From Bispira polyomma (taxonomy: Eukaryota): a stretch of DNA of 64,000 nt. The position numbers and the translations under genes were made by a program. Of the stretch, positions 1,229 through 49,600 are shown piece by piece; the stretch's first letter is position 1; each line of letters opens with the position of its first letter. The notes under the pieces were generated by a model. That model was given only the letters and a program-made list of their open reading frames with translations. It was not told the origin of the DNA and did no database searches. Where the stretch lies: positions 73,284,001 through 73,348,000 of the forward strand of contig OZ287749.1 of the NCBI GenBank assembly GCA_965649765.1, written 5' to 3'.

Positions 1229-3459
1229 CAGTGGATTTGGTCAAACTCGAATGGACAAAACTCGAAAGTAGCCAAAATTCGAACGAATTTCCGATCCCCA
1301 ACAATTCATAGCTTAATCTTAAGGAAATCATCGAACATTCGAGTTACCCTTAAAGTCATTATTCGAAGCAAATTTCTGACTTTAAGGTTAAGTTTAGTAT
1401 GAGGAAAAAAGGGATTACTCGAATCAAATAACGGACCGATCAAATAAACAACTTACCAAATAAATCAGAGCATATAATCCGCCATTGAAGCTACACAAAT
1501 GAAAGGCCATCTATCCTTTTAAAAACCATATCAAAGCAATGTTAGGGGATTATGTAAGCCGCCATTGTCACTGAAGTTAAATAACTAAAATGCTAACTTT
1601 CCTTACAAAACGTGATCAAATGGGTACCGCCATTGTTACCAGTGCTTTGTTGTTGGTGGTTAGCGCAAAACCTCGAACATCAATTAAGGTTGATTGTAAT
1701 TTCTAATTTCACCCCAAAAAATTTGAATTTTTCAATTGGGATTAACTCTTGGTCTGATGAGTATAAATAGGGGTATCAACTTACAGTTATTATTCAGTCC
1801 TGAGATATTATTCAATATGGCAACTAAACGAAAAATGATTTGTAAACCTCTTCATGAGAAATATCAGGCTTTAGTAGAAGTAGAAAATGGTGGGAAAAAG
1901 TCAGATATTGCTAAGAAATATGATGTTCCACTGAATACCCTTAGAACCTGGATAAAAAACTCTGACAAAGTTAAGAACTCTTTTAAGTCTAGGAATCAAA
2001 ATTTGTCCAGAAAATGAATAAAACTGGAAAATATGAAGAGATAGACAGTGCATTACTTAAGTGGTTCAGTGCTAAATCAGAAGAGGGGGCTTCAATAAAT
2101 GAGCCCATCTTATTAAAAAAGGCAAACAAATTTACTCAGGATATGGGGTACAATGACTTTCGTTGTACAATGAGTTGGATAACAACTTTTAAAGAGAGAC
2201 ATGGGATAAGGTTTAGGGCTATTATTGGGGAAAAGTCTGCTGTGGATTTAGGTAAAGTTGAACAGTGGCATAAGACAATCTGGCAGAATATTCTTCAACA
2301 AGAGGAGAATGGCCTGGCGGCCATATCATGATAATGCCCCAACAAAGAGTCTGCAAATAGTGAACCAGTCGCTAGAAACTGGTCGAAATTGACAAAGACA
2401 CAGTCACTACAGAGTCTGTTTTCAGTGGGCGATAATACAACTAGAAAGATCAGAGAATGCGGTTTATATTTTACGTTTTTGTCCTCATTTTAATTTTTTA
2501 TAAATCCCAAAATAAGAGATTTGCTAGCAGAACTGATGTCCGGTAACAGGAAGCGTATGCTAACAGGACGTTTGACGATATATAACCAATCGTTTACAAG
2601 TCCACATTTTCATTTCGGCGATGACAGTAAAAAATTTAAAATGTAGTTTATCCTACATATTACCGAATGAAAAGCTGGTATAACTTAAAATATGTCAAAT
2701 AATGATCAAGTATATACGTTTTGTCATTTAGTTGTTGCAATTTTTTATTTTATGGGCCATTTTTGATACATGTGACAAAACTGGAAGTCTGCCATTTTAG
2801 ATAATATAACGGTATAGTGGCTGTGAAAGATGTCAGGGAAATGTCTGTCGAGGAATTTAATGACTTTGTCACCTTGGAAGACAATGTCACAACTTCAGAA
2901 GTCCCTAGTGATGAGATCATCACAGAAGTCAGGGGTATCCAGGATGAAGCCAGCGATGATAGTGATGAGGATACCCCTGAAGAGGCTCCAATTCCCACAA
3001 ATGTTGAAGCTGAGGAGCTTTGTCTCATCAAGACTCAAGTCATTTGTTGGACACTAAAACAAATCTGACCTCTAAGAAGCAGACCTCAATAGTAGATTTT
3101 TTCAAAAAGTAAATAATAGTAGTGCGAGTTGTTTCGTTTTAGTATGGATCTTTTGTCGTAAAATATTAGTTTAGCAACACAGATATAAAAAAGACATTAA
3201 TACAGAGTTTTACCATTTTTATTGTAAGTAAACATATATTTAGCATGTATAAATAAAATCATTAGTTGTTTATGTTCAATTATATGTGTTAAATCGTGCC
3301 AAATATTAGTGAAAATGATCAATATGGTATTACCGCCCACTATTACCGATACATTCCATCACTCAACGATTCACAAAAGAGTTTTTTACAACTCGAACCG
3401 GTCATTATTCGAACACTTTTCACTGCTTTAACAACATTCGACTTTGACCAAATCCACTG
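1229..3459 (+). mobile_element. Tigger/pogo-like DNA transposon, defective, in striatin intron 1
   Basis: TIRs CAGTGGATTTGGTCAAACTCGAA / TTCGACTTTGACCAAATCCACTG, each flanked by TA; internal transposase fragments. Confidence 0.92.
1817..3112 (+). pseudogene. Disrupted pogo/Tigger (CENP-B-like) transposase
   Basis: HTH-psq (KKSDIAKKYDVPLNTLRTWIKN), frameshift, CENP-B HTH (IDSALLKWF...SWITTFKERHGI), acidic tail 2817-3068, terminal KKQTSIVDFFKK*; DDE domain not found. Confidence 0.88.
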
Positions 3460-7085: not shown

Positions 7086-8127
7086 TCCGATATTTTCAGA
7101 ACATGGCTGCCATTAAACTTTACATCACCGAAAGGTGTCGCCCCGATCACTGACGTAAAATTGTTACCGTAAAATAATATAAAAGTCCAACCCGTAAAAG
7201 TGCACAAAGCCCCGACATTCTTTCGGGTGATCAATGTCTTCTATATTATGCATACGTTTACACAAAAGCTGTTTGAAATGGTTGTAATGTATGTAGGTAA
7301 TAGAGACCTTATTTGGGTTTACGCCCTTTAACGCTACTAAACCAGTTACATCACATTTCTTATTGCATGATCAGTAAAATCCATAGAGAATATTGGACTT
7401 GATGTATTTTTTTTCAGGGTAAAATTCTATTTAATTACCCATAATTGCACCAAGACACTTTGACTGATATATACCATGTTGATACTTTTATCAATTACCT
7501 GATAAAAAAAATTCTAATTATAAAACAAATAACATGTTGGTTGTCTCTAGACTCGAATTCTGTCAATATAACCAAAAAAGGATCATGCTTATTGAGAAAT
7601 ACTTTAGTAATTCTAAACTATCACCAACATAAATCATATGCCAAAGTGGCCAGAATCTATTACTTTCAATTTTATTTAAATTGATGGAGCTACATTGTGA
7701 GTATATCACCAAGTTTATCAGGACAAGCTTATCTTGGGTGGAAAAGTCAAACATCCATGCTCCAACATCCCAGATTTACATTCTGTAAACGTGTTCACAC
7801 CTAGTCAGTGTATAGTTCAAGCATTTTTCTCAAAATATTCTCCCTTAAACAATCATCACAGGTCAAAATTTCCGCTTAATAGAAAGTAGTTTGACAACTC
7901 AGAGAAATACCTGATGTTCAAGAAGGCTACATACTGAAAGACTTTTGACAATGCCAAATGGAAAAATAAAAACTTAGCTGGTAAAACCCTTAAAAAAGTA
8001 CAACAAAGTATTCGAAAATTCCTTGACAAACTTGTCTGTTGGATAGCAGTCGATGAATATTTCTATTTGCCAGTGCTATGTCCATTGACCAGCAGTCAAG
8101 AGTATAAAATTTTCCGGCATAGTCCAC

Positions 8128-9069
8128 TGTGGCGAATGCCATTTCCATAAAACCCTTAAGTTGCCAAATTTCGTTAGTTTCCCCAAGGAAAATTGGGAAT
8201 TTCAAAAAGTTAATACAGCCTGATTTTGGCTAGATTTTTCAGCTGTTTCAAATGCTGCATTAAAAGTACCCAGTACTGAGGTATTCTAAATAGATGTAAA
8301 CAAGCTGAGGTCATCAGGAGTTACTATATTTAGATGGGTTATATACAGGGAGATATAAGGTGGGATGTTTGTCGTGTGAGCTGGCTGAGCCAATAAGATT
8401 TTGTGGGTGTTTCTGGGAGGACAGCCTCGTGGCTTCCAGACTGGATCTCTCTCTCTTTCATATTGGGAACAAAGGGTTGTGGATGTTTTTTTGTGTGGAT
8501 TGGAATTTAATTATTTTAGCTTAATCAAGGTAGTGTTCATACTTATTATGTTTTAACAAGTAGTAACAACATATTTGGTAGGGATAGGGGGAATTTGGGA
8601 TGATTTTCATTATATTTAAATATCATTATACCCAATTTTTGACCTAGATATTGGGAGTTGGCTGTCAGTTTGATTTGGCCTATCATAGTGATAAGTTTCT
8701 CCCCTGTTTTATTTTCATTACTGTAATTTTATAATATCATTCACCTCATTCATTTAGTGATACTTGGAGTATACCTGAATACTTTGGTACCCCATCCCTT
8801 CTGGTGGGGGTAGGGGTAACCCCGTATTGGTTATCCGTAACGGCGATGAGGCCATGTATGGTGAAAGTACCTATTCAAATGTTGACATTTCAATCATCTG
8901 GGCCATCATTCATTTTGGTAGGTGGGTTGAACTTTAACCTGGACCTTGATCTTTAACCTTGTTTCACCCCTTCGTTTCCCAGTCTCGGTATTTGTTGACC
9001 GTACCCAGGATGTGGTGGGAAGTTCCAGGGGTTCTGTCTATATATAGACCATCCCAGGACTTCGCCACA
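8128..9069 (+). repeat. Putative 5' LTR (942 bp)
   Basis: Starts TGTGGCGAA, ends TTCGCCACA (perfect 9-bp inverted termini, TG..CA); followed directly by TGG PBS-like sequence; no second copy in window. Confidence 0.65.
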
Positions 9070-9083
9070 TGGTACAGAGAAGC
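9070..9083 (+). promoter_or_regulatory. Putative primer-binding site (degenerate tRNA-iMet-like)
   Basis: TGGTACAGAGAAG directly after LTR end; resembles TGGTAGCAGAGGA (complement of metazoan tRNAi-Met 3' end) with small deletions. Confidence 0.45.
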
Positions 9084-12000
9084 AAATATGGGAGGACGAA
9101 TATGATTGAGCACCCCATTAATTAGGTTAGGAAATGTTTAAGTTAAACGGTAGGTAGGATCGAGTTAGTGCAGGCAATATGGGAGTTACAGGGATTTCTG
9201 GTACAGTGGAATTTTTCGTTAGAACTTGTCTTATAGAAAAGAGTCATTTAATTAGGCTTAAAAGAAAGTAAACTTTATAATTGTAGTGGAATTTTTGGTA
9301 GAACTAGTGTTATAATATAGAGACAATTATTTAAACTTGAAACAACTAAACTCAATGATTGTGTTTAAATGGTAAAATAATAATTCTAAGTTGAAAGTAA
9401 TGTTTCCAGCAGTAATTAATTTTAATCACAGTGAAATTTGACCTGAGTAACAAATAATAATATTCTTTCTTTAACCTTCAAATAGTTGTTGATGTAAATG
9501 CTTAATATTATTGTTTTCTTTAACTTGCAAATAATTGTCGATACAAATTCCCAATATTATTGTTTTCTTTAACTTACAAATAATTGTCTGCAGATGCATA
9601 ATACTATTGTTTTCTTAAACTTTACAATTTTTGTTGCTTAGAAATAAGTATTCTATACCACCACTTGCTGCGTATATACCCCCCTTTTGGTTCAAATTAT
9701 GTGATGTAACATTACAATACATCACATAATTTAACTTTATTATTAAATTCTATACTTTTCTAAATTAAAAATATATCAAATCCTAACTTAATTATTTTTA
9801 ATAACATTATAAAATCCCATACTTTACTATATTTTAAATAAATCAAATCCTTAATAAATTATTTTGAGTTTACATTACATTATTAAATCCTATATTTTCC
9901 AAATTGTAAATAAAATCTTAATTTTGTCATATGTCATATCCTCAGTAAATGTTCTGTGTTTCCTTGGTTAATTTGTGTTTGTTGTGTCTATTTCTTTCTC
10001 TCAATGTCATGTGTGGGTATTAACTTCTATATATTGTTCTAATTCTAAAATATAAAACCTAACTGTTTATAATCTCCTTTCTTTTAATATTAATACTAAG
10101 TCAACTAATATTTGGTGTTTGCTATTATATACATATATGTGTGGCTTTCCGTTTTAATATTGTACCCCACATCTATTTTGTCCGTTTTAATATTTACATT
10201 TGTTGTTAATATATACTTGTTTGAAATGTCATTTATTGTGTTTCCATTATTGTGTTTTCCAATCTATTAAAATAACTTTGATCAACTCCTGACCTGGGTT
10301 TGCCAGTAAAATCAGTAGGGTTAAGATTAGAGGGTGACCTCGACCAAGACCTTAAAGGCAATTGACCTTGACCTTGGTTTACAAACCTGCACTCTTTTTG
10401 AGTTGGTTGACAGCGTGTCTGTCCGTAAAACATATCTTCTTCGAAAACAGTGACTGTACTCCTCCAAGAATTAGTTGTAAGGTAAAATTGCATAGGTGTC
10501 CTAACAAAGAAATCCTTGAACCTAGGCTGCAATATCTCACTTGCTCACGACTCTGACTGTACAGTGTGCTCGGTTTACACTACTAGATTGTAAAAACTTA
10601 AGGTTGGACTATCCGTAAAGAATATTCCAGTAACAGCTTTTGGTCGGTAGCTGGGTTGGACCACGGGAAATGGGGCAGGGTGAATTGGTTGGTCAGTGGG
10701 TAACCGGCCAGTGTTGTCCCAGCTAGTGGGTGGTAGGGGAACCCAAAGAGGTCGGTCCTCAGTCAGCAGCACCCGTTCCCGGTCTCTTCTCCTCCGGTGG
10801 TGCGCCACCCTCCCGGAGAGCCGCGCTGGGCGGTGGTAGGACGGGGTTCCGGCCAGGCATCCGGTAGAGTGTGTCGGGTCGGCGCCAGCGGTCCCTTTCA
10901 AGCCGTGGCGGGGTTGTTCTCCCTCGAGGGCTCGGGGCAACAAGGGGGGGGGTTCGATCCCTCCCCCCGGACGGAGAAGAGTGAACGGCGGACGGGGTAG
11001 CCCCCCGTCCCGCTACACCACTGAGCAAACAAATAAATGAAACAAAATATATGTCAATACACTCATATATGAGATTAAAAAAGACCAAGAGGAAGAAAAC
11101 AATATGGTGTAGTTATGAGGGATTTTAAGGTGCATATACTAGACCTTTTGGCATCTACGGCGAGGAGCAATGATGGAACAAACGGATAGTAGGAACTTAG
11201 GAATTATTCAAAATTTATTAGAAATTACCAATGCAGGTAATATTTTAATCTGATTCTGGGAATGTTGGGTAAATATTGATATGTATGCAGAAGGCCAATA
11301 AATCAGTCATAGATTATGTATTGATGGATAAGTATGTTTTTATATACAGGATTATTGGACAGTCAAATTCATGAAGGTTTAAAATGGAAGCAGGCTTTTA
11401 TGCGGATAGGATAACCATGCTTAAAGAATTGTATAAATGTCATAGACATAAATAATACAATATGCTGGGCAGACTCAAATTATTCCAATGTGGGAGTCAA
11501 ACAAAGATGTGATTTTTCTCGTCTACTTTTTTTCCTTACATATTAATCATATACTGATTTAGGTGAAGTAATTAAGGTGTACTGGGTGCACTGGGTCGAC
11601 TTTAGGTAATAAGGTTTTAAGGGCTGCTATTTGCTGGTGATCTAGTTGTAATGACTGAAACTAAGAATTAAAAAATGCAATTGCAACATCTTGCGGGGGT
11701 ATATATGTCACTCAGAAAGGGCTTAAAATTAATTTTGATAAGGGTATAATAATGGAAGCAAAAAATACAGGGGAAACAGGACCAATAAAATGCCATTAGA
11801 ATGGCCCTCAAAAATATGTATAAAAAAAACATTATCTTGAAAGCACGACATAAAGCAGAAATAAGGTAAGAAGACATGAAATTTAAAGGAATCATACCTT
11901 GAAACTACCTAGAACCATAAAGCATAAAATGTGGATGGAACAGTGGATGGAGAAAAATTTTGAGGTTGAAACTGACAGATACGGGAAAGTATATAATTTA

Positions 12001-12869
12001 TGATAATCTGTAGGCAGCATGTTATGTGATCACAACAGCTATATAAATACACATTTATGATGTAAAAAAGGAACATAGTGTGGTGATTCTCGAGTTACAT
12101 AAAACTAAAATTTTATACCTTGCTTTAGAGTGATTTATTGCTAAAATAGTAATATTTTTGTAGTTATAGGGTTCATTAAATTTAAAAGTAATTTAATAGT
12201 AAAACATGTTATGGTTATTTTGAGAGTAGAGTAATTGGTAAATATAACTTTGACATAGACTTTTGTAATTTAGAACAATGTTTTCATAAAAGTATCAGTT
12301 GAATACCATATATATTCTAGTTGAGTTACAAACTAACATTAGTAAGATTGCATTTGTTCCATATTTAGGATAGGTAAATAAAAATCAGAAATAATTAATT
12401 TTTAATAAAATTATAGTTTTTGGTGATTTTTGTTGTTTTGATCAGCATATTGAATAATTATAAATTTAATAATTAATTAGGCTTATTTATTGATTTGTTT
12501 TGCTGAACACTCGTATTTGTTACGAGTATACAGTCTGTGTGTTTAAGAATATACAGATTGATTGACAAATCAATTGATACCAGTAAACATTTCAATTATT
12601 GCGTTCCAATTTGGAAATATATTTGAATTTGAACATCAACCGAAAATCAGTTTTCATAAACTGTTTCAAAATTACAAAACTAGGAGTGTCAGTCTTACCA
12701 ATTGACTTCTTGGTTGGGGAAAATCAAAATTCAAAATTATTGATTTGTTATTATAAAAATTAACTTGGATAAACCTTAGTTAAATAACTATTTTTTGTAA
12801 CTTGATACAGTTTGTTATGTTAACTTTGATTTACCATAGTTAAGTAACCATATACAGCTGAAGTTCAAG

Positions 12870-14263
12870 ATGGAGGTCGGATCATTAAACATCAATGTTG
12901 CTTCGAGGGAGGAATTCGAAGAACTGGTTGATATTGAACTTGAGGGAATTTTGTCAAAAAATGGCAGGAGCATTTGAGCAGCTCAGTGAGAGAGTTACCT
13001 CAGAAATAAAATCTATTAGACAGGATGTCGGTGATCTAAGGGAAGAGGTACAACGAAGGTCGTCAGTTTCTAGCAGGTCAAGTGGTAGTGGATGTGATCT
13101 GAAGAAGCAGCGTGTCATAAAACCAAAGCTGAGAGGTGCTGAAGGTGGTCAATCACTTTCTGGTAGCGGATCGAAGCCCGAGCGGAGGTCAGGTTCCAGT
13201 AGAGCGTAAAGCGGCACTGATCGTGGGAAACGTCATGTTTTTGAACAGGTGCAGCTAGAGCTACATAAACAAGCTGCAATAGATGACCTTGAGTAATCTT
13301 ACGAACAAGCACGACAGCTGAAACAAGAAAGATTTGACTTCAAGCGGGTATATCTTGCCAGATCTGAGAGAAGTCGAGCTGAGTTACTGCAGTCAGATTT
13401 AGAGGTTTGAAGGGTTTTTTGACAAAACTGAACCTGTATTGGCAATTCACTGGGACATCCTGAGTATCGAGCAGCGAGAGGATGAAGCTCTTGAGAAGTA
13501 CCTTGCTCGATTACAGACAATGATACTGAGGGCATACCTAGACTCCAGTCAGTCTGACCAAGATAACACCTTGTTCATCGAGGTTTTCCTAAAAGGGTGC
13601 AGAGAGAAGGCAGCTGTTCTTTCCCTTTGTGATAAGAATCTGACCAATCTGGAGGAGGCTTATAAATGGGTGAAGGCAGCCTCGCTGTACAGGAAAGCGG
13701 TTCTGGGAAAGAAGGGCCAGGCAAAGAAGGTCAACTGGGTACAGACAAGAACCTCAGACAACAGTAGTAACAGCGAAGAACTGAATACTTCCGCCGAAGA
13801 AAGACCTCTGGTACAAAGTATCCAAAATAAATCAAATCTGTTACCACAACCGAGGAAGCAACCAGATAAATCATCTGCAGAAACGGAGATGCGGGACTTA
13901 AAGAGTATGCTTGGGAAGATGTTGATCCTCCTACAGAATCAATCAAATAGTAACCAGGGATACAGGTTTCCACCGAGAAATCAAGGTTGTTTTAGATGCG
14001 GTTCCCCAAGTTACATTGTGAGGCAATGTCCACAACGTGGTAAAGGTTCACCCCATAACAGTCCTAATCGGAGCGATGATCCAAATTGGCGTTCCAAATG
14101 CAACTCTCACGGTGCATCATCTCATAATGGGAAACCGAGAAATCAAGGTTATCGGTCACCACTGCCAAGAAATGCTGGCAATGGACACCGATCACCTCAG
14201 CACGTCAACAGGGAGTGCGAGGTTGGAACGCAACTTCCTGGACTTCATAGAAGTCATCAATAA
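12870..14263 (+). pseudogene. Gypsy-type Gag, frameshifted
   Basis: Capsid-like segment QREDEALEKYLARLQ...FLKGCREKAAV...LEEAYKWVK; degenerate CCHC knuckle CFRCGSPSYIVRQC; N-terminus MEVGSLNINVASREEFEEL at 12870. Confidence 0.8.
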
Positions 14264-14487
14264 GTCTGCAACATGCAACAAGCATAAAGAAACAGCAAAA
14301 CCTTTTACCACAAGAACTGGATGGGAAACTAGGATGCCAAACCACCTGTCAGATTGTCGTAGTTAATTGTGTAGTTAAGTGCAAGCAAAGGTTTGGTTGG
14401 CATGTGTTGACGGGTGAAGGGTAAGAACTAATCAATCTCTTCCAGAACTGTCACTCCATACCTATGAGATTTTCTTGTTTCTTGCAG

Positions 14488-16696
14488 ATGGAGAGAGGTA
14501 AGTCATCTTACCAGGGAGGTAGACCCCCTAGTAGGGGTAGAGGGTTAGAACGTGATGGCGAAGGTAGGAGTCGATATACTTCTCACTTACTCACAGATTC
14601 CTCCAGGTACGGACCCTACAGAAGAGACGACAGGTATCCTCAAACCGATTCCTCCAGAAATAACCAGACTAGGATAGGAGTCATCATACCGATTACTACA
14701 GACAAGATGGGCATAGGCCACAAGATAGAGATAGGAGTCGACCAGCTGATTTCTACTCGCGTCAAGATGAAGAATATCATCCGAGTCCTCATCACACCAC
14801 CACCAAAGATGAGGATGAGTCTGTCATCATAATCTTGATGGACATATATGACGCCCAAGTTATCAGGGCGAGCCTTAATCATCCTGAAAACAGAAGGACA
14901 CCATTTGACAGGGGGATCTTGCTGGAAAGTTGTCTGGTAGACCTCAGGACCATATCCACCTGGAGAAGGTCAGTCAGGTTAAGGGCATCAGCTGCTGTGG
15001 GAGCCCCCCCCCCCCCCCACCCCCACCGAAGACATCCTCTAGTGAAGCTACTCAATCACGGTCCGAGCAGCCTATCAGATCAGGTAGTCAGTTATCACAG
15101 GGAACCACATTTACCTACTGGGGGATATGGCAGAAGCGGAGATTTGACTCTAGAAGCAAGAATGCAATTTCTTGAAGACCTTTTGGTGTAGATATGCAGC
15201 GCCTTGGATTGTGATAGCTTTTCTGAGCTATTGGACAAAAGTTATTAAACTGAAATATTATCCCTTAACTGACAGAACATACAAGATAACTGATGCTGAT
15301 ATGCAGTTAATGGATCAGTTTAATATGTGGTCGGACTCGAGACATTTACAGCATACTCCAACCATCAGTCCACCAAATCTTGTAGCTTCTCTAGTACAGT
15401 GGAGAGCCTTGGCTAAATTAATCAATTGTATCGGGGAAGAAAATATACATGCAGAATACACCAATGTAGAGAAATTAAGAGTGACAGCTACAATTGAATC
15501 TGATGAGTAAACCAGAAGAAACATTTTTCAGATCAACATCAGATGCCTTTAGGGAATACCGGAACAGTAAGAACAAGTCTGTCAAAGTCGACATGGATAA
15601 GAGGGAAAAGTCAATGAGTTCTTACAAAGAGTCAGAATTTATTGTTCTGGACAGTTTGTCTACAGAGGAGTTAGTCTCTTCTGAGAAACGTATGGAAAAT
15701 GAGGATGACAAGGGCACAGGCGTCAACCTCTTCTGCTTGTACCAGTACATTATCATATTCAGATGTTTTGCAGACAACACCAGTAGTGAAACCAAGAATG
15801 AATAAATCACTACCAGCATTATTAGAATTGCCATATATCAAGGGGGAGAGGGAATCCAGATTGGTTTGCTTGGTAAGTAATCCAGTGAAAGAGTGGTTTA
15901 ACATCTTTGGATGAGATTTTGGTCAATGGACCCATGCCTTGTTCTCCAATTCAGTTAGAGGCTGAGATAGCAAATTTCATAGATGGGGTCCCAGATAGGA
16001 AAGTTAGACAAGAATTGTGTCGGGACCAAAGGTTGTTCTTCTCCTTCGGGGTGCATCCTAAGCGTGCAAATAAGATAACCCGTGAAGAAATGAAGGCACT
16101 CAAGCGTGTACTGGTTAAGGAACTTGATATGTAGGAATTGGGGAGATGAGTTATGATTTAACTGACGGATGCAGCACCTTCATGGACAAACCAAGGTGTT
16201 GAGGGAGCAGCTGCAAATGTGCATGAGCCAAGAGATGTGGTCGACAGTGATTGTGATCCATTGTCGAGATTATGCAGACTCCTGTATGGCCAGTGACTGT
16301 TGCCTGAACACAATGGCTAGAGAGCTTCCTAAGGTTCACCAAGCAACTTACAAGATCTATAGGCACTGCTACAATAGGAAAGTTAGCGAGAAAGATGCCT
16401 GGTTAGGAGAATATCCGAACATTATGTTTGGTTTTACAGGTCTGTTGCTCAAAAAGGAACTTCACCCCGAGTTGGAGGAGGTGGTTAGATCATTACCTTC
16501 TACAAAAATATTGTTAAAGTCTGATTCACCCCATCTGTTGCTGCCGAGTTTCAGAAGTGACGCTTACAACACACCCTATGATGTTGATGAAGTGGCAAGG
16601 AGGATAGCGTTTCTGTGTGGCACAACTGTACAAGCGGTTTTAACAATCACCTGTGTCAATGCCAAGAGGTTGTATGGAAAGTTAGCAATATTGTAA
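14488..16696 (+). pseudogene. Retroelement ORF3: low-complexity N-terminus plus C-terminal TatD-family (TATDN2-like) nuclease domain; frameshifted
   Basis: TatD motifs in order: FSFGVHP, VGIGEMSYD (16131, other frame), QTKVLREQL, VIHCRD, YKIYRHCY, YPNIMFGFTG, KILLKSDSP, NTP, NAKRLY. Confidence 0.85.
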
Positions 16697-17216
16697 GGAG
16701 GGTTAGGGCCAGCAGGTTGCTGAAAACTAAGTTATAATGTGTTGGGAAGGTAAGCAGGTTAAAACACTTTTTTCCGTTAAAGTATTTTCAGGCGATGAGC
16801 GAATTAAGGTAAATCACCTGCTACTTATACCACAAGGGTTTCTGGTAAGGAAATTGAACTCCTTTACCATAAAACAGAACCTTTCGTTGACAGGGAAGAG
16901 TGTGGTGATTCACGAGTTACGCAGAACTCGTTCTTCATGAAGGGAACTCTTGCTTTGGGCCGTAGAAAGTGAAGGTCGCCGGAAAGCTATGCAGTTCGCC
17001 AAACAAATAATGACAGCCATATTGAAGGACATAATATAGAACCGGGAGATTTAAACAGTAAACTGTGACAGATACCTAGGCAGATATATAGTGTGTGAGA
17101 GTATACAGAGATATAGTGTGTGATCGTGTAGCAGTATATACACGGGAACAACGTGCGCTACTGGAGTTTATAAAACAGCAAGTTCACTTTAATAGCACTA
17201 TTAAGTTGATCAGCAG

Positions 17217-17890
17217 GGGCGGTATTCACAAAGATGGATCAAGCTGAGCGAAAAATCAGCTCAAGATCAGCTCAAAAAAAGGCTCAGCTGATCTTTGGAT
17301 CAAATCAGTATTCACAAAGCAAAGATCAGCTGAGCCAAAAATTAGATAATTTTTAAACAACAAAAACACAAGTTCAAGTTTCTATACATGTTAAACAGCT
17401 GTTATATGAATTAATTTCCGTTTAAATTATATTTTGATGCATTAGGTTGATTATTGTAAGCAAAAGAATATTTTAAATATTTTTGGTTTAAATCCAAAAC
17501 TTAAGCTCCGCCCACTTTTGATCGGGGGGGGGGGGGGAATACACAAAACATAGCCTCTTTTCACAACAATTTAAACCAACATAGAACTGTAAATAGCTAC
17601 TCTTAAAATGACATATGTAAAGATAAAGAATCATAGATAATTTATCAATGATTTATTTTATGAAAGCATTGTTAGTTTGTATATTACAAAGTTCCAAACT
17701 TTGATCCAAATCTTGATCCACCTAAATGGATGGATCAAAGTTAAGCCAAAAGATAAGTGAAAAATCAGCTCAACTTTTTAGTGAATACCAAACTTGATCT
17801 GATCCAAAAATTTGAGCTGATTTTTGGCTCGGCTAATTTTTGGCTCAACTTGAGCTGATTTTTCGTTGATCCCTTTTGTGAATACGGCCC
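17217..17890. mobile_element. PIF/Harbinger-like MITE
   Basis: TIRs GGGCGGTATTCACAAA / TTTGTGAATACGGCCC, internal subterminal repeats, CAG/GAG flanks. Confidence 0.75.
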
Positions 17891-18032
17891 GAGGCCATGA
17901 TCAAGCCTTAACATGAATAATATTATTGTGCAGAAGTGGTATTAAACATTTAAGTAAGACTTTTAAAATATGCAGGAAATTTGTGCACTTGGAAAAAGGT
18001 TGCTTTTGTTGTATACAAAGAATACCTCTATA

Positions 18033-18250
18033 CTGGTCAGTTGCGTGAATTTCGTCACCCACTAGCGAATTTCGCCACCCGAAATAAACAAGTTTAGAAA
18101 CTGTTTTTCTGGAATTGAATCAATGTAAAATATTGTATTACGCGTAAATTATTGCTTTATGAATTCCAAATCACGAAATTACTGCTATATAGTGCCAAAA
18201 AATGTCAAGTGGCGAAATTCACTGGCGGGCGAAATTCACTGGCTGAGCAG
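18033..18250. mobile_element. MITE, TA-flanked
   Basis: TA|CTGGTCAG..GAATTTCG repeats versus CGAAATTCAC..CTGAGCAG|TA. Confidence 0.65.
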
Positions 18251-19049
18251 TAGCTATATATAAGGATAATGTTGAAATGTCATAGAAATCCGATTTATGG
18301 ATAAGAGTTAAACTCTATGTTCAACTAATGCCTTACCATTATGACTTTTGTATATAACATCTTCCAGTAATGAGTAATTCCAGAGATATGACAAAGATAT
18401 TAAGGGTCATAAACCAAAATCTTCTAATACTGAACACGTCTGAAAAGTGAACAATTTGGCAAACGAGTATTTACTCAACGGATGTTTTTCTGTATTACAT
18501 AAGAGCTATTTAAGAAGGTTTTATATGTGCCTTTATGTATTTCAATTAAGTTTCCTAAATAGCCAAATGTATCTTAGGAACATCATTTGACAAGTATTTT
18601 CTGAGATATAGTTTGTCTTGTTTCTCAACATTCTAAATAAGTTCAGAGCACAATGTCAATATCCACACTCCTAAATATAAATTTGGAACAACCTCAGTAA
18701 ATTTTAGTTTTCAGTTTGGTATAACCCACAATGGGTATTCACTTGTCAATCACTTCTTCATTGTCGCATTTCTATGGCTGCATACATGCTATGCTATCAC
18801 ACATGGCACAAAGATGAACACCAATTTTTTATCTGTATGGAGGGCAATTTTGTGTGATGTGCCTTATAATCTCAAAAATTGGAATGAGGTCACAGAGAGT
18901 CAAAGACCACTAATATTAAATTCCTCTTGGTAATAGCTTAAAGGTCAGAGTCACAAGTCAATGCATTATAAGGCATTTATAAAGTGCCAAATTGATGAGA
19001 ACATCCTCTCAGGCGCTGATATTCCAAAAGGGGAGGTCCAAGGGCAAGC

Positions 19050-28600: not shown

Positions 28601-31600
28601 ATGTATCTGTATTAAGAGAAAAATACTGCCAGCTATTGTTAGGCTTGTTTTGCAGACAAAAATTTGTTTGTGTCGTTAAATTTTGGTTTTGCTCCTAATA
28701 AAGTTCATATTGTACCATTAAAGATGTAATAATAACAATTGATCAGTTGGCTGTAGTGTAGTAACATGTACGTGAAGGTAGACACTTGGATAATCAGCTG
28801 ACTGTACTATAGTAATACTTGCATGAAGGTAGACGCTTGATTGATGAGCTGGCTGTACTATAGTAACACTTACGTAAAGGTAGACACTTGGTTAATGAAC
28901 TGGCTGTAGTAAGACTTGCGTGAAGGTAGACATTTGGTTAATGAGCTGGCTGTAGTAAGACTTGCGTGAAGGTAGACACTTGGTTAATGAGCTGGCTGTA
29001 GTAAGACTTACGTGAAGGTAGACATTTCATTAATGAGTTTGCCGTAGTAAGACTTACGTGAAGGTAGACACTTGGTTGATGAGCTGGCTGTAGTGTGCCG
29101 GTAATGACACAAGTCTGTTCACTGACAGAGGGTAAGACACAAGCTCCACAAGCTTCTCTGGCTGTAGTTTTTTCTTTACCATCTCATCTGAACACCAACT
29201 GAAGCATATTGATTAAACTTAAACGCATGCTGAAACTAAACTACAACGTACAGTAAAAGTGAAGGTAGTGAACACCTCCGAACAATGTTCACCGTTACAT
29301 AATGGAAATCTAATTTAAATTTATGTTAAGTTTTACGTCGCTTTCAACAACTGTCCTATTGCGATGGCCAGGTTTAGTGGTGGAAGAAACCAGTGCTGAA
29401 GCACTGCAAACCACCGACCTATGGCAAGTACCTCGCAAACTTTCTCACATGAAGAAGGAATATGTGGGATTTGATTCCTAGAGGCGAGACGCCAGTGATT
29501 TTTAAGCAGACGCTTATCACCACTAGGCCACCGCGGCCCATCTCTATATAATAGAAATTAATAAGCACTTTTTCCTCAGTCCTGTTTGCCATTAGTGTAA
29601 TGTTACAGGGCCTCCAAATAGTGAACACCTCATAGTAAACATTTGGCCTTTTTTTTTTTTTTTGAATTGGGATATTTAACATCCACTTTAGTACCTGTTT
29701 AGGTTATATTGGGACGGGTAGTTGGAAACGCTGGAGGAAACACTGCATACAGTTGATCAAGATTCTGCACTGAAACCAGCGGCCCACAGTAAGAAACTAC
29801 CACCTTTCCCACATAGGCATTGACGAAAGTTGAACCCACGCCAGCTGATCCCAGAGGTGAGAGACCAGTGATTGTGAAGCTTGCTAACCACTAGGCCACC
29901 GCGGCCCTGTCTCATAAATGTGCACTACACGGAGGTTTTACTGTATAGAGAGAGTTTCTCATTAACAGGAAGAATCCAGAAAATGTTACTATTCATCTTA
30001 ATAGAGCTTCAAGCAAGAAACTCGAATATGCAGTCAGATCTTAGATATCTTTCTTGTAAAAAAAGGTATATTTTGGGTATGTTCTGAGAATATTTTGAGT
30101 TTAACACCTTTAATAAATACGGTCCATGGAGTATGTTAAATATGTGACAGAATAAAGACCTGAAATACAAACAAGTGGGTCAAATCTCCACTGTTTCCAA
30201 ACCTTTAGAACGTCTGGATTACTCCAGACATAACATAGATATACTAGACAGAGTACACTAATACAATGTAAAAGAAAATCACACATTTACAAAGGCTGAA
30301 ATTAGTGTGTATACTTCAATATTGGCATTATAGAACTTTCGAAAATTTAGTTTTCACTATAATATGGTTTTCTTTGTAGGAAAATACTTAACTATTTTTT
30401 CATGTTGTATTTACACTTGTCGTAAGTATTGTTTTTCAGATAACAGATATCGCCTGTAACTGTTAAAACATATCAAGTACAGTGGAACCTCTGAACATGT
30501 TGGGACAGCAACATTTTGTTTGGATAATAGAAGGTTAATCAAATAGAAAAGGCATTTCTATACAAAGCAGTTGGGAAACATACAGTTGGGAGAGTGAAGC
30601 TGACTTCAAACAAATTTGAATATTTGGATGATAGATGTTAGGATAGTAGAGGTTCTACTGTGTATGCAATTTTGGATGATTGTTAGATTAATAAAACGCA
30701 AACTGTATTTACAATTTGATTGAACTATAAAATACGAAGCACTCCAACCTTGTAACAAGCTGTTTTATGAGGTGTCCTGAAAAGTATAATGACAGGTCCG
30801 TTGGTAAGCCCAGGTAACGGCATAGAGCTTCAAACTCGTCATTGGATGGCAAATTGGCTGGAAAGTAAAGACACATCTTAAAACAATGATTTATGTTGTA
30901 AAGCACATTTACCCATATTTAATAAACTTGTGAGAATAAGAATTCTTCAGATTCATGAAATGTTCATGAAATTTGATGCAAGGGATTTAAAAAAAGTTTG
31001 TTTAATCTATATTAAAACATGGAATAACTGGTACAACAAAAGTATAGCAGCAAGAAGATATTACATAAAATACATAGAAATATACAAAAACATAAATTAT
31101 AAGAATGGTAGTACAAGATCACAAGAATGGTAGTACAAGAATGTTTGTGAATATAACCCTTGGATAAGATGTGTGACTATTAAATACAGATATTATAGCG
31201 AGAATACAACAGATATTATATTTCTTGTCTTGGGAATCTAACCGAGCACATCCTTATCACCAGACCAACTCCCTAACCACTAGGTCATGGGACACCAATT
31301 CGTAAATTAATCACCAAATAAAGTAGGTGCCCCTGGACTTTATTGCTATATTAAATGCTACTTACACTGGAGTATATCCGAGGGTTTTATGGCACTAATA
31401 TAATGGAAGAGCAAGGCACAGCATCTAAGGAACGGAAGCATGGCCTCTTTGAGGTGGGACAACAGCTGCCAGGCTGAAGGCTTCATCTCGGACGTCAAAC
31501 TAGATGTAAAAACCAGATATCAAACAAAATCTCTCCATGGCCTCAGAGATTACATTGGCGACAAGCTGTTGGTATGCTAAATGTTTTCAGCCATGTGAAA

Positions 31601-46600: not shown

Positions 46601-49600
46601 GGAAACCTTAATCGACTACTTTTATTTCGGTTTCAAAGCTAGTTGGGCATGATTTCGACTAACCGGCACTATGTGACACCTTTATTATTAAGATAAATGT
46701 GTGTTTCCAGTACCTTGGTCCAGTCCAGCCTGCTTTCTCCTCTTCTTCTGTACTTCCTCCGCTTTAGACTGTTCAGTCCGTGAGTAGTGGTAAAAGAGTG
46801 GGTTAAACAGCTCATAAAACACGGGTTTTAATTCATACATACCCTTACCCTGTGGTCCACTGGCTTTCCTACACAACAAAATACAGTTACTTTTAGCTGG
46901 ACATTGTTTTGCAGATTTTTATTGTGCATTAATGACGTTGAGCATCTTCTACAGCGCAACATTCAAATCAATACACCAAGTGAAATGCATAAAAAAAATG
47001 CATTGAGGACGGATGCAGCGCGAGACTATCTTAGCATTAATTATTTTAATGTAAAAATAAGCTACGATCTAGGAGAGCAGTGCAGTAAAAACACACAATG
47101 GCCTTTAGAGTAATAAGGGCAGAAAGGCCAAAGCACCCACTACAACTCTTCTGAGGTTAGAGTTTCAACCTGCTTTACCCTAAACTCTCTCTGAATAGCC
47201 CAAACGAGCACCTCTAAATGGGCTTTCACTTAAATTGCAGCATATCTAGGGGATGGGCTCTAAAGAGAATGTGGTTTTCTGTTTATAAATTTAACTGTAT
47301 TTACAGACAAGAGGAGAATGGCCTGGCGGCTATATCATGATAATGCCACTACAAAGCAAGTTACTGACGAGTGTGAAAAAAGTAAGCCAGTCAAAATGTA
47401 TTTCGAGAACCATCTACTGAGGGGTAATGAGTAAGGTAAACCAAACGCAAAATTCAAATCTAAAACATCTATGTATAAACAAAATTTACGAGACCCGAAA
47501 GACATTCTTCACAAAATATTAATCTGTTACTAGTGAGGTTCCGTTAGTCTGCCATACTAGTGAAGTGGACAAAATTGATCTTAACTTCAAATATTAACTT
47601 AAAAGTGTATAGGAAGCTAAAAAAACATATACAAAGCATTCCGTGACCAATCAATCGGTCCCACCCATATCTTTGATACATAAAACGTGAATAGTAGGCG
47701 ATAATACCATATATTTGAGTTTCACCATAAAATGTTTAATTTTCACGAACTTTGTCTTATGACATTGACATTTAAAAATAAAATAAAATGTTGCAACTGT
47801 AACCTCTCCATTTTTGATATCTGAGAAGTTTACATCAGTATACAAATGTAAATGAAATCCACCGAGCAGGTTTTGTGTTACAGTCTGGAAGTAATTAAAC
47901 ACTTTAAACTCATTTTTTTTTTATAATACTTTTACTGTTACGAGTTTAAGGTCACCATACAAAAGAGTTCTTCTTTAGGTCCATATACATGTACATCTAT
48001 GTGCCAAATACAAATCAAATCCATCAAGCAGTTTTGAAGTTAGAGTCCAGAATGACTGAAACATGCTGTAACCTTAAAGTAGTCATAAAATTTTAACTCT
48101 TAGGAGTTTAAGGTCATCATACAATAGGGTTCCTCCTCAGGTCCATATACATGTACATCTATGTGCCAAATATAAATGAAATCCATCAAGCAGTTTTGGA
48201 AGTTGGAGTCCGGAATGACTGAAACATGCTGTAAACTTAAGGTCGTCATGAAATTTTAACTCTCAGGAGTTTAAGGTCACCATACAAGAGGATTCCTCTG
48301 CAGGTCCATATACACCTGTGTACAAAATATGAATGAAATCCATCAAGCGGTTTTGGAGTCTGAGTCCAGAAAAACTGAAATATGTTGTAACCTTAAAGTC
48401 ATAACGAAGTTTTAACTCTTAGGAATTTAAGGTCATCATAAAATAGAGTTCCTCCTCAAGTCAATATACATCTGTGTACCAATTATGAATGAAATTCATC
48501 AAGCAGTTTTGGAGTTAGAGTCCAGAAAAGCTGAAATATGTTGTAACCTTAAAGTAGTAATGAAATTTTAACTCTTAGGAGTTCAAGGCCACCATACAAT
48601 AGGGTTACTCCTCAGGTCCATATGCATTTGTGTACCAAATATGAATGAAATCCATCAAACCGTTTCAAAGTTAGAGTCCTGAATGATTGAAACATGCTGC
48701 AATCTTAATAAGGTTTGTCATATATGCCTTTTGTAACGGACCCTTCAATCAAATCTGACAATGTCAATATTTAAAACTTGAATAACTTGTACTATACCCA
48801 ATATAATCAAGCCAAATTAATTTTGGACCAACTAGAGACCAAAGAGTGTATATATACCAAATATAAAAGCACAACTCCTTACAGATTCAGAGATTACCCT
48901 GTGGACAGGATGTTGCTCTTCGTAATTATGGTTTTCCACTATCCCCCCCCCCCTCCCTCTTTCTCTAGGAAAGCATGATTATGCCAATAAGCATTGGCAT
49001 AATCATGCAAAATCTGGGGGTGGGCTATTAAGAAAGCATGGCCTATAACACAGATAGAGAGCTGTCTGTATATTAATCAGTTATAATTATTTTGTTAGAG
49101 AGCTGTCTGTATATTAATCAGTTATAATTATTTTGTTATCAAACTTTTCATCATTAAAACAAAATCTTGAGTGCTCTCCTAATATATTTGAATAAAGATT
49201 TAAACAGTATATTAGACAATCGGCAGTAACAATAACTTTATATTAAGGTGTTTGTTGGTTTGAATAATAGAGGTAGTACTGTCTAAAGAGAGAGAGACTG
49301 ACTTGAAGTCCGCCACTTCTAGGACAACATCCTCTAGGCCCGTCTCATGGTGGGAGTCGTCTGGTAATGACTTGGACAGCTCACTATGAGGCATGGCCTG
49401 TAGACACAGCTGGTGAATCACCTCATGTTTGACCACTTCCTTCTTATCTACAGCCCCAATACCTGGCTGATAACGCTCTCCTACAACATCATGTGTACAA
49501 CAGAATTCAAATACCACACACATACCTAGATTTGCTTAATAATTTAACAATGTAGGACATGTTACCACACATTCAGAGAGGAACACAAAAATGTTTGTTT

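Follow-up and report, generated by a model that had tools for sequence, protein, structure and literature searches.

The window analysed here is a 64,000-nucleotide stretch of contig OZ287749.1 from the Bispira polyomma genome. It contains a TatD nuclease-like sequence beside the remains of an LTR retroelement, and the question it raises is whether the nuclease belongs to the element and, if so, what it might do there. The window copy is a dead, stripped-down, pol-less member of an old Ty3/Gypsy branch that carries a TatD gene in the env position.

Extent and parts of the element in the window

An element spanning 8128–17200 had been proposed in the initial annotation. The ends set by comparison with relatives lie instead at 12079 and 17191, flanked by an ATAG duplication, and the parts are as follows.

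8128–11017, plus strand: non-coding TG...CA unit of high copy number, distinct from the TatD element and with a 4-bp duplication (CCAC) of its own
12075–12078, unstranded: left target-site duplication, ATAG, identical to the four bases at 17192–17195
12079–12106, plus strand: 5′ LTR remnant, the first ~28 nt with the TG start, 87% identical to the start of the 3′ LTR
12093–12869, plus strand: leader, common to the pol-bearing C13 family, 83–88% to 9 of 20 TatD loci
12870–14263, plus strand: gag, 78–81% to sibling Gag (tblastn)
14286–14372, plus strand: pol tail (last codons), 50–57% to the integrase-ORF end of L042, L044 and L045 (tblastx)
14468–14490, plus strand: splice-acceptor-like site read from the sequence, a pyrimidine tract and CAG directly 5′ of the ORF3 ATG at 14488
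14488–16696, plus strand: ORF3, with an Arg/Gly/Ser-rich head, a Cys/His domain, a variable linker and TatD, delimited from sequence and relatives; broken here
15096–15441, plus strand: remains of the zinc-finger-plus-helical domain of ORF3, 45–66% to a C13 copy (tblastn)
15880–16696, plus strand: TatD nuclease domain, predicted Group II type (PF01026, E 8.7e-21)
16889–16900, plus strand: polypurine tract, a purine-rich run adjoining the 3′ LTR as in relatives
16901–17191, plus strand: 3′ LTR, whole, 291 nt, TG...TA, 70–79% to sibling LTRs
17192–17195, unstranded: right target-site duplication, ATAG, pairing with 12075–12078

This copy has lost the remaining 5′ LTR sequence, its primer site and a portion of the leader through deletion, and the internal leader of its siblings matches from 12093, which corresponds to a point about 380 nt beyond the end of their 5′ LTR. 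Gag comprises an N-terminal helix-hairpin-helix, a capsid-like domain and a degenerate zinc knuckle (siblings match PF00633/PF12836 and PF03732); in the window it is damaged by stops and by two internal deletions, near 12937 and 13400. The initial annotation was right to recognise gag, which is 78% identical across 210 aa to a sibling Gag with a PF03732 match, and also a short pol-tail remnant, matched by the three pol-bearing relatives listed above. Protease, RT, RNase H and the integrase core are absent from the copy. The gag-to-tail junction is identical in all five closest siblings, in which pol is deleted there too, and members of this pol-less family measure about 7.6–8 kb when whole.

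The LTR-like unit with a primer-binding site that had been read at 8128 is not the LTR of the TatD element, and it forms no direct repeat with the element's 3′ end. As a candidate 5′ LTR it was rejected: none of 20 TatD loci matched 8128–12078, and none of 12 other copies of the unit had TatD in the next 6–7 kb. For two pairs of copies lying 16–20 kb apart, gag, pol, TatD and any ORF of 200 aa were absent from the stretches examined, and Rfam gave no match at E 0.1 across 7500–18500.

A TatD-bearing clade of Ty3/Gypsy elements

Intronless TatD matches in the genome number at least 151, a lower bound, so the segment is not single-copy, and other members of the same gag/LTR family carry it as well. 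At all 38 TatD loci examined with 20 kb of context, gag, RT or integrase lay upstream in the sense orientation (RT and/or integrase in 31), and 26 of the 38 had paired LTRs of 73–98.6% identity. Exact 4-bp duplications were found at 13 of 22 other loci inspected, and two more agreed at three of the four bases. The pol order in relatives is protease–RT–RNase H–integrase, RNase H motifs were present in all four pol ORFs checked, and the genome's tRNA-Leu(TAA) has a 3′ end complementary to the site that follows their 5′ LTR. LTRs, pol order, primer site, polypurine tract and duplication all fit Ty3/Gypsy (Metaviridae), to which the TatD elements belong.

When RT hits were sorted by identity, TatD lay downstream of 50 of 58 at ≥70% and of 10 of 17 at 57–69%; among more distant hits the counts were 2 of 38 at 50–56% and 0 of 37 below that. 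TatD stood on the wrong side or strand of RT in 2 of 150 cases. In the RT tree (3 of 35 rows dropped because their single alignment was too short), 19 TatD-bearing RTs fell on one side of a 100/100 branch and 13 without TatD on the opposite side, and the TatD-bearing clade took in an intact gag–pol–ORF3 element on metagenome contig L134. RT and TatD have descended together: all eight starred RT groups reappeared in the TatD tree (Mantel rho 0.69, p 0.001; 12 of 41 loci dropped, again for a single alignment that was too short), with TatD evolving much faster than RT across families. The proposal of TatD as retroelement cargo in the env position was upheld, and the gene is borne by a Gypsy clade in its entirety.

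Two of the 80 loci in the metagenome scan were of the element type (L134 and L160), and the 20 others placed in the tree grouped with ordinary bacterial TatDs. Viral contigs gave 15 pattern matches, none of them confirmed, and the element RT matched only generic RT/RNase H clusters in the Atlas. Relatives occur in bivalve and sea-urchin protein sets. In public annotations these genes are labelled as host proteins, under "TatD", "uncharacterized" or "mucin-like", and what mollusc and echinoderm annotations show as "expanded TATDN2/TatD" may be cargo of transposons.

The TatD trees comprised three groups, with TATDN1 and TATDN3 left out, so the case for TATDN2 as the sister group draws on these three groups together with bit scores. 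Element and TATDN2 clades were separate in the 102-row trees (SH-aLRT 95 and 96), and in a more careful tree of a 47-row subset they received 97/92 and 99/98, respectively. Element domains do not nest within host TATDN2 in these trees, although an AU test of their grouping with four gastropod TATDN2s gave p 0.08 and formally did not reject it. In phmmer, one element domain scored a median of 84 bits to 121 TATDN2-type proteins and 62 to 60 bacterial ones, with 58 bits to YcfH and 30 to TATDN3. The label "TATDN2-like" denotes TATDN2 as the nearest host paralogue and does not class the element domain as a member of TATDN2. We infer that TatD may go back to a single ancient capture from the stem lineage of animal TATDN2.

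The ORF3 protein and its maintenance

A PF01026 profile search placed the TatD domain at 16166–16693 (E 8.7e-21, 74.9 bits, cut-off 27). As first described, the domain is intronless, its motifs all occur in the order given, and a K occupies the E-x-D motif of the window copy where relatives have an acidic residue. The two reported frame breaks exist, though at about 16126 and 16190 rather than at 16130–16170, and the copy has a third near 15885 that had been missed. The third break removes the HxH metal-binding motif from the window copy. This motif is present in 17 of 18 genome ORFs spanning the N-terminal site and in 169 of 170 related proteins, and the other ligands (E, H, H, E, D) are each kept in 22–23 of 23 genome ORFs. 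Of the 18 genome ORFs that span all seven metal/catalytic positions, 15 keep every one of them, as do 163 of 176 related proteins. By these residues the TatD of the element is classed as Group II (HxH), and nuclease activity is predicted. The predicted model (pLDDT 86.5) is a TIM-barrel that matches YcfH 6l25 (E 1.6e-14), 1yix and TATDN3 2y1h at target TM 0.76–0.86, a ranking that cannot favour TATDN2 because the structure library holds no solved TATDN2.

Open ORF3 frames in relatives encode 832–855 aa, in the order disordered basic head, unnamed zinc-finger-plus-helical domain, Group II TatD barrel; PF01026 was the only profile match. The window copy has lost the front of the zinc-finger-plus-helical domain through a deletion near 15107. 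ORF3 has no membrane segment (maximum hydropathy 1.1–1.75 in five ORF3s vs 2.4 in an env control). The N-terminal domain was modelled at pLDDT 87 and is predicted to be separate from the TIM-barrel. Its best Z among 48,161 chains was 3.5, no viral match fell below E 2 and Atlas structure matches reached TM 0.34 at most, an absence that does not prove a new fold. None of 118 proteins from the TATDN2 search contained this Cys/His-plus-helical domain, and NADAR was fused in 5 of 51 related proteins scanned.

ORF3 is a reading frame separate from Pol, and no Pol–TatD fusion was scored among 794 candidates of 1457–4160 aa, which is weak evidence. A homologous AG/ATG stands at the start of ORF3 in five subfamilies. 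This shared acceptor position, the one line of support, suggests that ORF3 is likely expressed from a spliced, env-like message. Acceptor-like sites occurred in sense at 21 of 40 loci, a count no better than that of the antisense control (19 of 40), and 19 loci lacked one at the threshold used.

The dN/dS of TatD was 0.36 (0.22–0.58) among five pol-bearing copies and 0.54 (0.40–0.72) among seven pol-less copies, the pairs being non-independent because the copies are related. A shifted-frame control gave 0.74–1.40, with intervals spanning 1, and gag gave 0.39 in the pol-less family. Ratios between families, 0.1–0.2, come from only 1–7 pairs because dS is saturated. These results indicate that the TatD of ORF3 is under purifying selection, including in the family without pol to which the window copy belongs. 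The low dN/dS of that family could also stem from recombination with an unseen pol-bearing partner. Pol-bearing helpers with the same Gag, leader and primer site would have copied this family, which retained an ORF3 of its own. With gag and ORF3 both selected and pol absent, it represents a natural experiment on benefit in cis versus in trans.

Possible roles of ORF3 and comparison with known systems

Human TATDN2 degrades the RNA of R-loops, requires its disordered N-terminus to bind them, and also cuts hairpin RNA; it barely cuts plain RNA:DNA duplex and has little DNA activity (accessible text of PMC10711561). In fish, tatdn2 clears R-loops in primordial germ cells (accessible text of PMC12709183). 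By analogy, at about 30–33% identity, the ORF3 protein would be an RNase that cuts R-loops or structured RNA at transcribed copies of the element itself. Its transcript would be made by splicing the leader to the AG/ATG preceding ORF3, as for env, and the element may gain from reduced R-loop stalling, damage or silencing at its sites of transcription. Taken as a whole, a dead pol-less copy of a clade whose ORF3 would act in this way, the reading is tentative and somewhat short of probable; within it, a spliced message and RNA cutting on R-loops or structured RNA in germ cells are both likely. The host would in principle have TatD paralogues of its own, and this makes an element-borne R-loop enzyme less necessary. 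Plain RNA:DNA-hybrid processing is a less likely function because the RNase H motifs are intact and TATDN2 is weak on simple hybrids (PMC10711561). We regard as doubtful the broader proposal of an old, widespread, undescribed Gypsy clade of marine invertebrates with its own germ-line R-loop nuclease, targeted by the zinc domain to its own copies and conferring an advantage local enough that pol-less parasites keep the gene.

ORF3 might instead be a counter-defence RNase that degrades silencing RNAs of the host (piRNA precursors or primer-site-blocking tRNA fragments) or the nascent element RNA by which they would be recruited. Element anatomy and the selection data fit this equally, conflict would predict the faster evolution of TatD than of RT across families, and the NADAR fusions are consistent with it, since NADAR domains occur in conflict systems. 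TATDN2 cuts hairpin RNA too (PMC10711561), and a silencing role has been suggested for the rotifer DEDDy ORF3 (PMC5408684). However, dN/dS is below 1, and helpers could have supplied a trans-acting factor, but selection maintained the gene in the pol-less family itself; we consider counter-defence rather unlikely. That this family keeps both gag (0.39) and TatD (0.54) under selection is what a cis-favoured particle role predicts, with ORF3 packaged alongside Gag and aiding reverse transcription by trimming RNA ends or the tRNA primer, by clearing away three-stranded strand-transfer intermediates or through removal of damaged cDNA ends. TATDN1/3 and bacterial TatDs are indeed 3′ exonucleases and AP endonucleases (accessible text of PMC10085689). 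Packaging is nonetheless unlikely: the four pol ORFs checked have RNase H motifs of their own, ORF3 is a separate frame with no Pol–TatD fusion among long proteins (weak evidence), TATDN2 is hardly active on plain RNA:DNA duplex (PMC10711561), and neighbouring clades replicate without a TatD ORF3.

A DNase that clears stray element cDNA, or the DNA of rival elements, ahead of host DNA sensors would agree with most characterised TatDs being DNases (PMC10085689) and with YcfH-type DNases and TATDN3 as the best structural matches. Those matches came from a library in which TATDN2 could not be ranked, the nearest host paralogue, TATDN2, has little DNA activity (PMC10711561), and the element's own cDNA would be endangered; we judge this role improbable. 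Scarcely credible is a chance retrocopy of host TATDN2 that the elements bear as a neutral passenger. Decay of the window copy and an AU test that left the gastropod grouping unrejected would fit it, but TatD is kept throughout one RT clade, its tree agrees with that of RT, its metal ligands are intact and its dN/dS is below 1, its partner domain is absent from all 118 TATDN2-search proteins, and an intact element exists on L134.

One enzyme family thus marks a whole RT clade with its active site kept, and its host cousin clears R-loops in germ cells. Because the enzyme is clade-wide and the cousin has a defined job, the benefit of an accessory nuclease to a retrotransposon becomes testable with purified protein. 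The clade is also a source of more than 100 diverged TatD enzymes, joined to a partner domain that has no name. Our search of the open literature, with Repbase, GyDB and subscription journals outside its range, found no report of TatD as LTR-retrotransposon or Gypsy cargo; PMC5718144 does not mention TatD, and a giant-squid paper has TATDN2 in a figure legend only.

Non-env third genes of LTR retrotransposons are already known, though rarely tied to a function, and the closest precedent is the DEDDy 3′–5′ exonuclease ORF3 of the bdelloid rotifer LTR retrotransposons Juno and Vesta (Rodriguez et al. 2017; accessible text of PMC5408684, in which "TatD" does not occur). These are likewise Gypsy-like, with an enzymatic non-env ORF3 after pol, of 3′–5′ nuclease type and with catalytic residues kept. 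Their fold is DEDDy, whereas that of the Bispira elements is the TIM-barrel TatD. In Juno/Vesta, a single animal group acquired ORF3 two or more times, and within the genome its evolution did not clearly depart from neutrality, whereas one RT clade carries the TatD ORF3 throughout, at dN/dS below 1.

TATDN2 itself shares with the element protein a C-terminal Group II HxH barrel behind a long, partly disordered N-terminal region, and an H-x-H-C motif preceding the third histidine (HRHCF in 94 of 118 TATDN2-type proteins). The element domain differs in forming a separate clade, in being intronless, multicopy, enclosed within LTRs and much faster evolving, and in the added Cys/His-plus-helical domain (0 of 118 TATDN2-search proteins).

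Errantivirus-type env elements have 4-bp, often ATAT-like, duplications. Errantiviruses and env-carrying Ty3/gypsy elements resemble the TatD elements in placing ORF3 3′ of integrase, in having an acceptor-like site where this ORF begins and in tRNA-Leu among the primers used (PMC13524379, in whose accessible text neither "TatD" nor "nuclease" occurs). Unlike theirs, the ORF3 of the TatD elements is not a glycoprotein and has no membrane segment, and a true env element (Baculo_F, E 1.7e-10) falls outside the TatD-bearing clade. TRIM/Helenus elements are similar to the window family in being without pol, in keeping LTRs, primer site and polypurine tract, in their 4-bp duplications and in being copied in trans by Gypsy helpers (accessible text of PMC10886601). 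TRIMs are, however, shorter than 1 kb and code for nothing (PMC10886601), whereas the window family reaches ~7.6–8 kb with gag and ORF3 under selection.

The window copy and its surroundings

The TatD domain proposed by the initial annotation was matched by PF01026 at positions 16166–16693 (E 8.7e-21), with its motifs in the proposed order, spread over three frames. The domain is broken as suggested, but instead of two frameshifts near 16130–16170, comparison with three siblings placed breaks near 15885, 16126, and 16190, the first of which removes the HxH motif. The gag, the short pol tail, and the K at the acidic position of E-x-D were all confirmed, whereas the left boundary moved from 8128 to 12079; of the 5′ LTR about 28 nt are left, and the primer site is gone.

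Features of the window
12079–17191 (+): TatD element; starts TG, ends TA, ATAG flanking both sides
12870–12935: Gag helix-hairpin-helix region
14468–14490 (+): acceptor-like site of ORF3, the third gene; pyrimidine tract and AG ahead of ATG
17214–17892: MITE-like insertion with terminal inverted repeats, directly right of the 3′ LTR
18055–18232: smaller inverted-repeat unit
11080–11900 (+): decayed LINE-type RT fragment by its appearance to the eye, between the two elements; no Pfam match at E 0.05
1993–2331 (+): Tc5/pogo-type transposase DNA-binding domain (PF03221, E 1.7e-14)
28738–29140: tandem array, 46–51-base unit
48032–48708: tandem array, unit about 156 bases
54732–55211: tandem array, 40-base unit
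57375–57582: tandem array, 51-base unit

The unit at 8128–11017 (+) was rejected as part of the TatD element, being a different, high-copy repeat with TatD downstream in 0 of 12 copies. Scoring of 40 of 185 candidates gave 39 other long matches at 86–96% identity. The unit is non-coding, about 3.3 kb long (2.9 kb in the window), and GC-rich and hairpin-prone at its 3′ end. In the window, this repeat is bounded by its own TG...CA ends and by a 4-bp duplication; six of the seven other copies with both ends readable (among 11 examined) also carry such a duplication. It contains no internal LTR pair and no long ORF. It may be a solo LTR of unusual length or a non-autonomous element of the LTR type; no parent of full length turned up.

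TatD elements as a Gypsy clade

All the features tested mark the TatD elements as a Gypsy clade. Searching the 1.04-Gb genome with the window TatD gave at least 151 intronless matches (150 scored of 282 candidates), and a TATDN2-type query added 17 TatD loci. Gag, RT, or integrase lay upstream on the sense strand at all 38 loci inspected with 20 kb of context (RT in 28, integrase only in 3, gag without RT, RNase H, or integrase in 7). Pfam matches ran in the order protease, RT, RNase H, and integrase, followed by TatD in a separate frame. LTR pairs were found at 26 of the 38 loci (73–98.6% identity; two other repeats were excluded as non-LTR), and exact 4-bp target duplications at 13 of 22 inspected. 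The primer site matches tRNA-Leu(TAA) of the same genome; most found copies of this tRNA lie in a tandem cluster with Ser(TGA) and Ala(TGC) on C3 near 12.38–12.42 Mb (L103, L105).

Among 150 RT matches, a listed TatD lay within 10 kb downstream in 50 of 58 at ≥70% identity, 10 of 17 at 57–69%, 2 of 38 at 50–56%, and none of the 37 with lower identity; 2 of the 150 were paired by the wrong-side control. When 20 RT loci without a listed TatD were inspected, four of six at ≥57% had one after all, and none of 14 at 49–56% did. In the RT–RNase H tree, from which three rows were dropped and whose outsiders all come from this one genome, 19 TatD-bearing rows formed one side of a 100/100 branch versus 13 without TatD. 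For 29 loci, the RT tree and the TatD tree agreed in all eight starred RT groups (Mantel rho 0.69). This clade-wide presence and tree agreement make a single gain of the nuclease, inherited alongside pol, most likely.

Neighbouring Gypsy clades without TatD (L229–L236, L242, L244, L245) carry other third ORFs of 195–392 aa directly after integrase, and some of these ORFs give weak matches to zinc fingers or coiled coils below Pfam cut-offs; a further locus (L246) has a Baculo_F env.

The window copy belongs to a family without pol. The five closest copies have the same gag-to-pol-tail junction, which places the loss of pol before their spread; a further two close copies showed no pol within the shorter stretches inspected. 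In leader, primer site, and gag, the copies of this family are roughly as near to the C13 family, which bears pol, as to one another (net dS 0.05), but against C13 their TatD is saturated and their LTR is 70–78% alike; on these sequence comparisons the family appears to be a recombinant. C13-type elements are its likely helpers, and no pol-bearing element with the window's ORF3 type was found among the best matches. Two separate pol-less derivatives (C4:9.4 Mb and C4:54.6 Mb) both retain TatD.

The ORF3 protein and its relatives

ORF3 almost certainly serves the TatD clade as an accessory gene that is conserved and equipped for catalysis. Of the 18 genome frames that span the seven metal and catalytic positions, 15 retain every one of them. 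The dN/dS comparison that had been proposed gave 0.54 for TatD in seven pol-less copies (95% 0.40–0.72; 0.54 without CpG sites), with gag at 0.39 and shifted-frame controls at 0.80–1.02; in five pol-bearing copies, TatD gave 0.36, RT 0.51, and integrase 0.62. Neutral decay after insertion forms part of these values, so selection was stronger while the elements were active. Recombination with a partner not seen here could produce a similar signal in the pol-less family.

A pyrimidine tract and AG precede the ORF3 ATG in five subfamilies; by simple count, acceptor-like sites showed no excess (21 of 40 loci sense, 19 of 40 antisense control). The head is basic and of low complexity, and the following domain, with C-x2/4-C...H...H and P-x-N...HWR motifs, has a predicted model (pLDDT 87) in which a C2H2-like finger rests on a bundle of helices, with no clear known fold in structural comparison. 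The predicted barrel matches YcfH and TATDN3 structures, and no membrane segment was found in ORF3. Gag of the clade opens with a helix-hairpin-helix (PF00633/PF12836, E about 1e-5; L040:1393–4005, L046:1862–2491), a motif unusual in Gag.

In trees of element, animal TATDN2, and bacterial sequences, rooted on bacteria, element TatD domains formed their own clade (97/92) beside TATDN2 (99/98). TATDN2 is nearest by score (median 84 bits; YcfH 58, TATDN3 30). An AU test that placed the element domains with gastropod TATDN2 returned p 0.08, so nesting within TATDN2 is to be called unlikely rather than rejected.

An intact element was found on a 9,035-base metagenome contig (L134). It encodes Gag, a Pol of 1,415 aa, and an ORF3 of 712 aa in which both domains recur, and it has a terminal repeat of 99 bases. 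Its RT falls inside the TatD-bearing clade, and a PHD finger lies at the integrase end of Pol (L134:1343–5587; PF00628, E 5e-9). A profile search returned 150 proteins, and the N-terminal domain occurs in 146 of 179 proteins collected, 16 of which had built its profile. The named examples, whose annotations read tatD, uncharacterized, or mucin-17-like, come from Mytilus edulis, Pecten maximus, Strongylocentrotus purpuratus, Diadema setosum, and Lytechinus variegatus, and presumably sit inside LTR elements.

In 5 of 51 scanned ORF3-type proteins (P0019, P0084, P0111, P0178, P0179), a NADAR domain is fused before or after the TatD module. The Cys/His domain of ORF3 also occurs on its own, as two ankyrin-repeat proteins of roughly 2,950 aa (P0094, P0127) have it but no TatD. 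One ORF3-type protein filed under a Sedimenticola sp. metagenome-assembled genome (P0052) is probably host DNA in a bacterial bin.

Possible role and known systems

The nearest characterised relative is TATDN2, which according to PMC10711561 breaks down RNA in R-loops and hairpins, has little effect on plain hybrids or DNA, and depends for binding on its disordered N-terminus; PMC12709183 describes its protection of primordial germ cells in fish. Because of this activity profile, and because the elements already contain RNase H motifs, we tentatively rank first a role in which ORF3 would cut R-loops or structured RNA at sites of element transcription in the germ line. Behind it we place an anti-silencing RNase, which seems unlikely, and then a particle-bound helper of reverse transcription, a doubtful reading as well; a DNA-clearing nuclease comes last and appears improbable. 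We favour the R-loop or structured-RNA role among these.

No report of TatD cargo in LTR elements was found in targeted searches of the open-licence literature, and Repbase may hold such families unnamed. The element TatD is TATDN2-like, a term used here for resemblance and not for orthology. Enzymatic, non-env ORF3s, namely a DEDDy exonuclease and a GDSL esterase, are described for the rotifer Juno/Vesta elements in PMC5408684 and reviewed in PMC5718144. ORF3 of the TatD elements would work like a nuclease ORF3 of the Juno/Vesta type, yet is not a member of that group.
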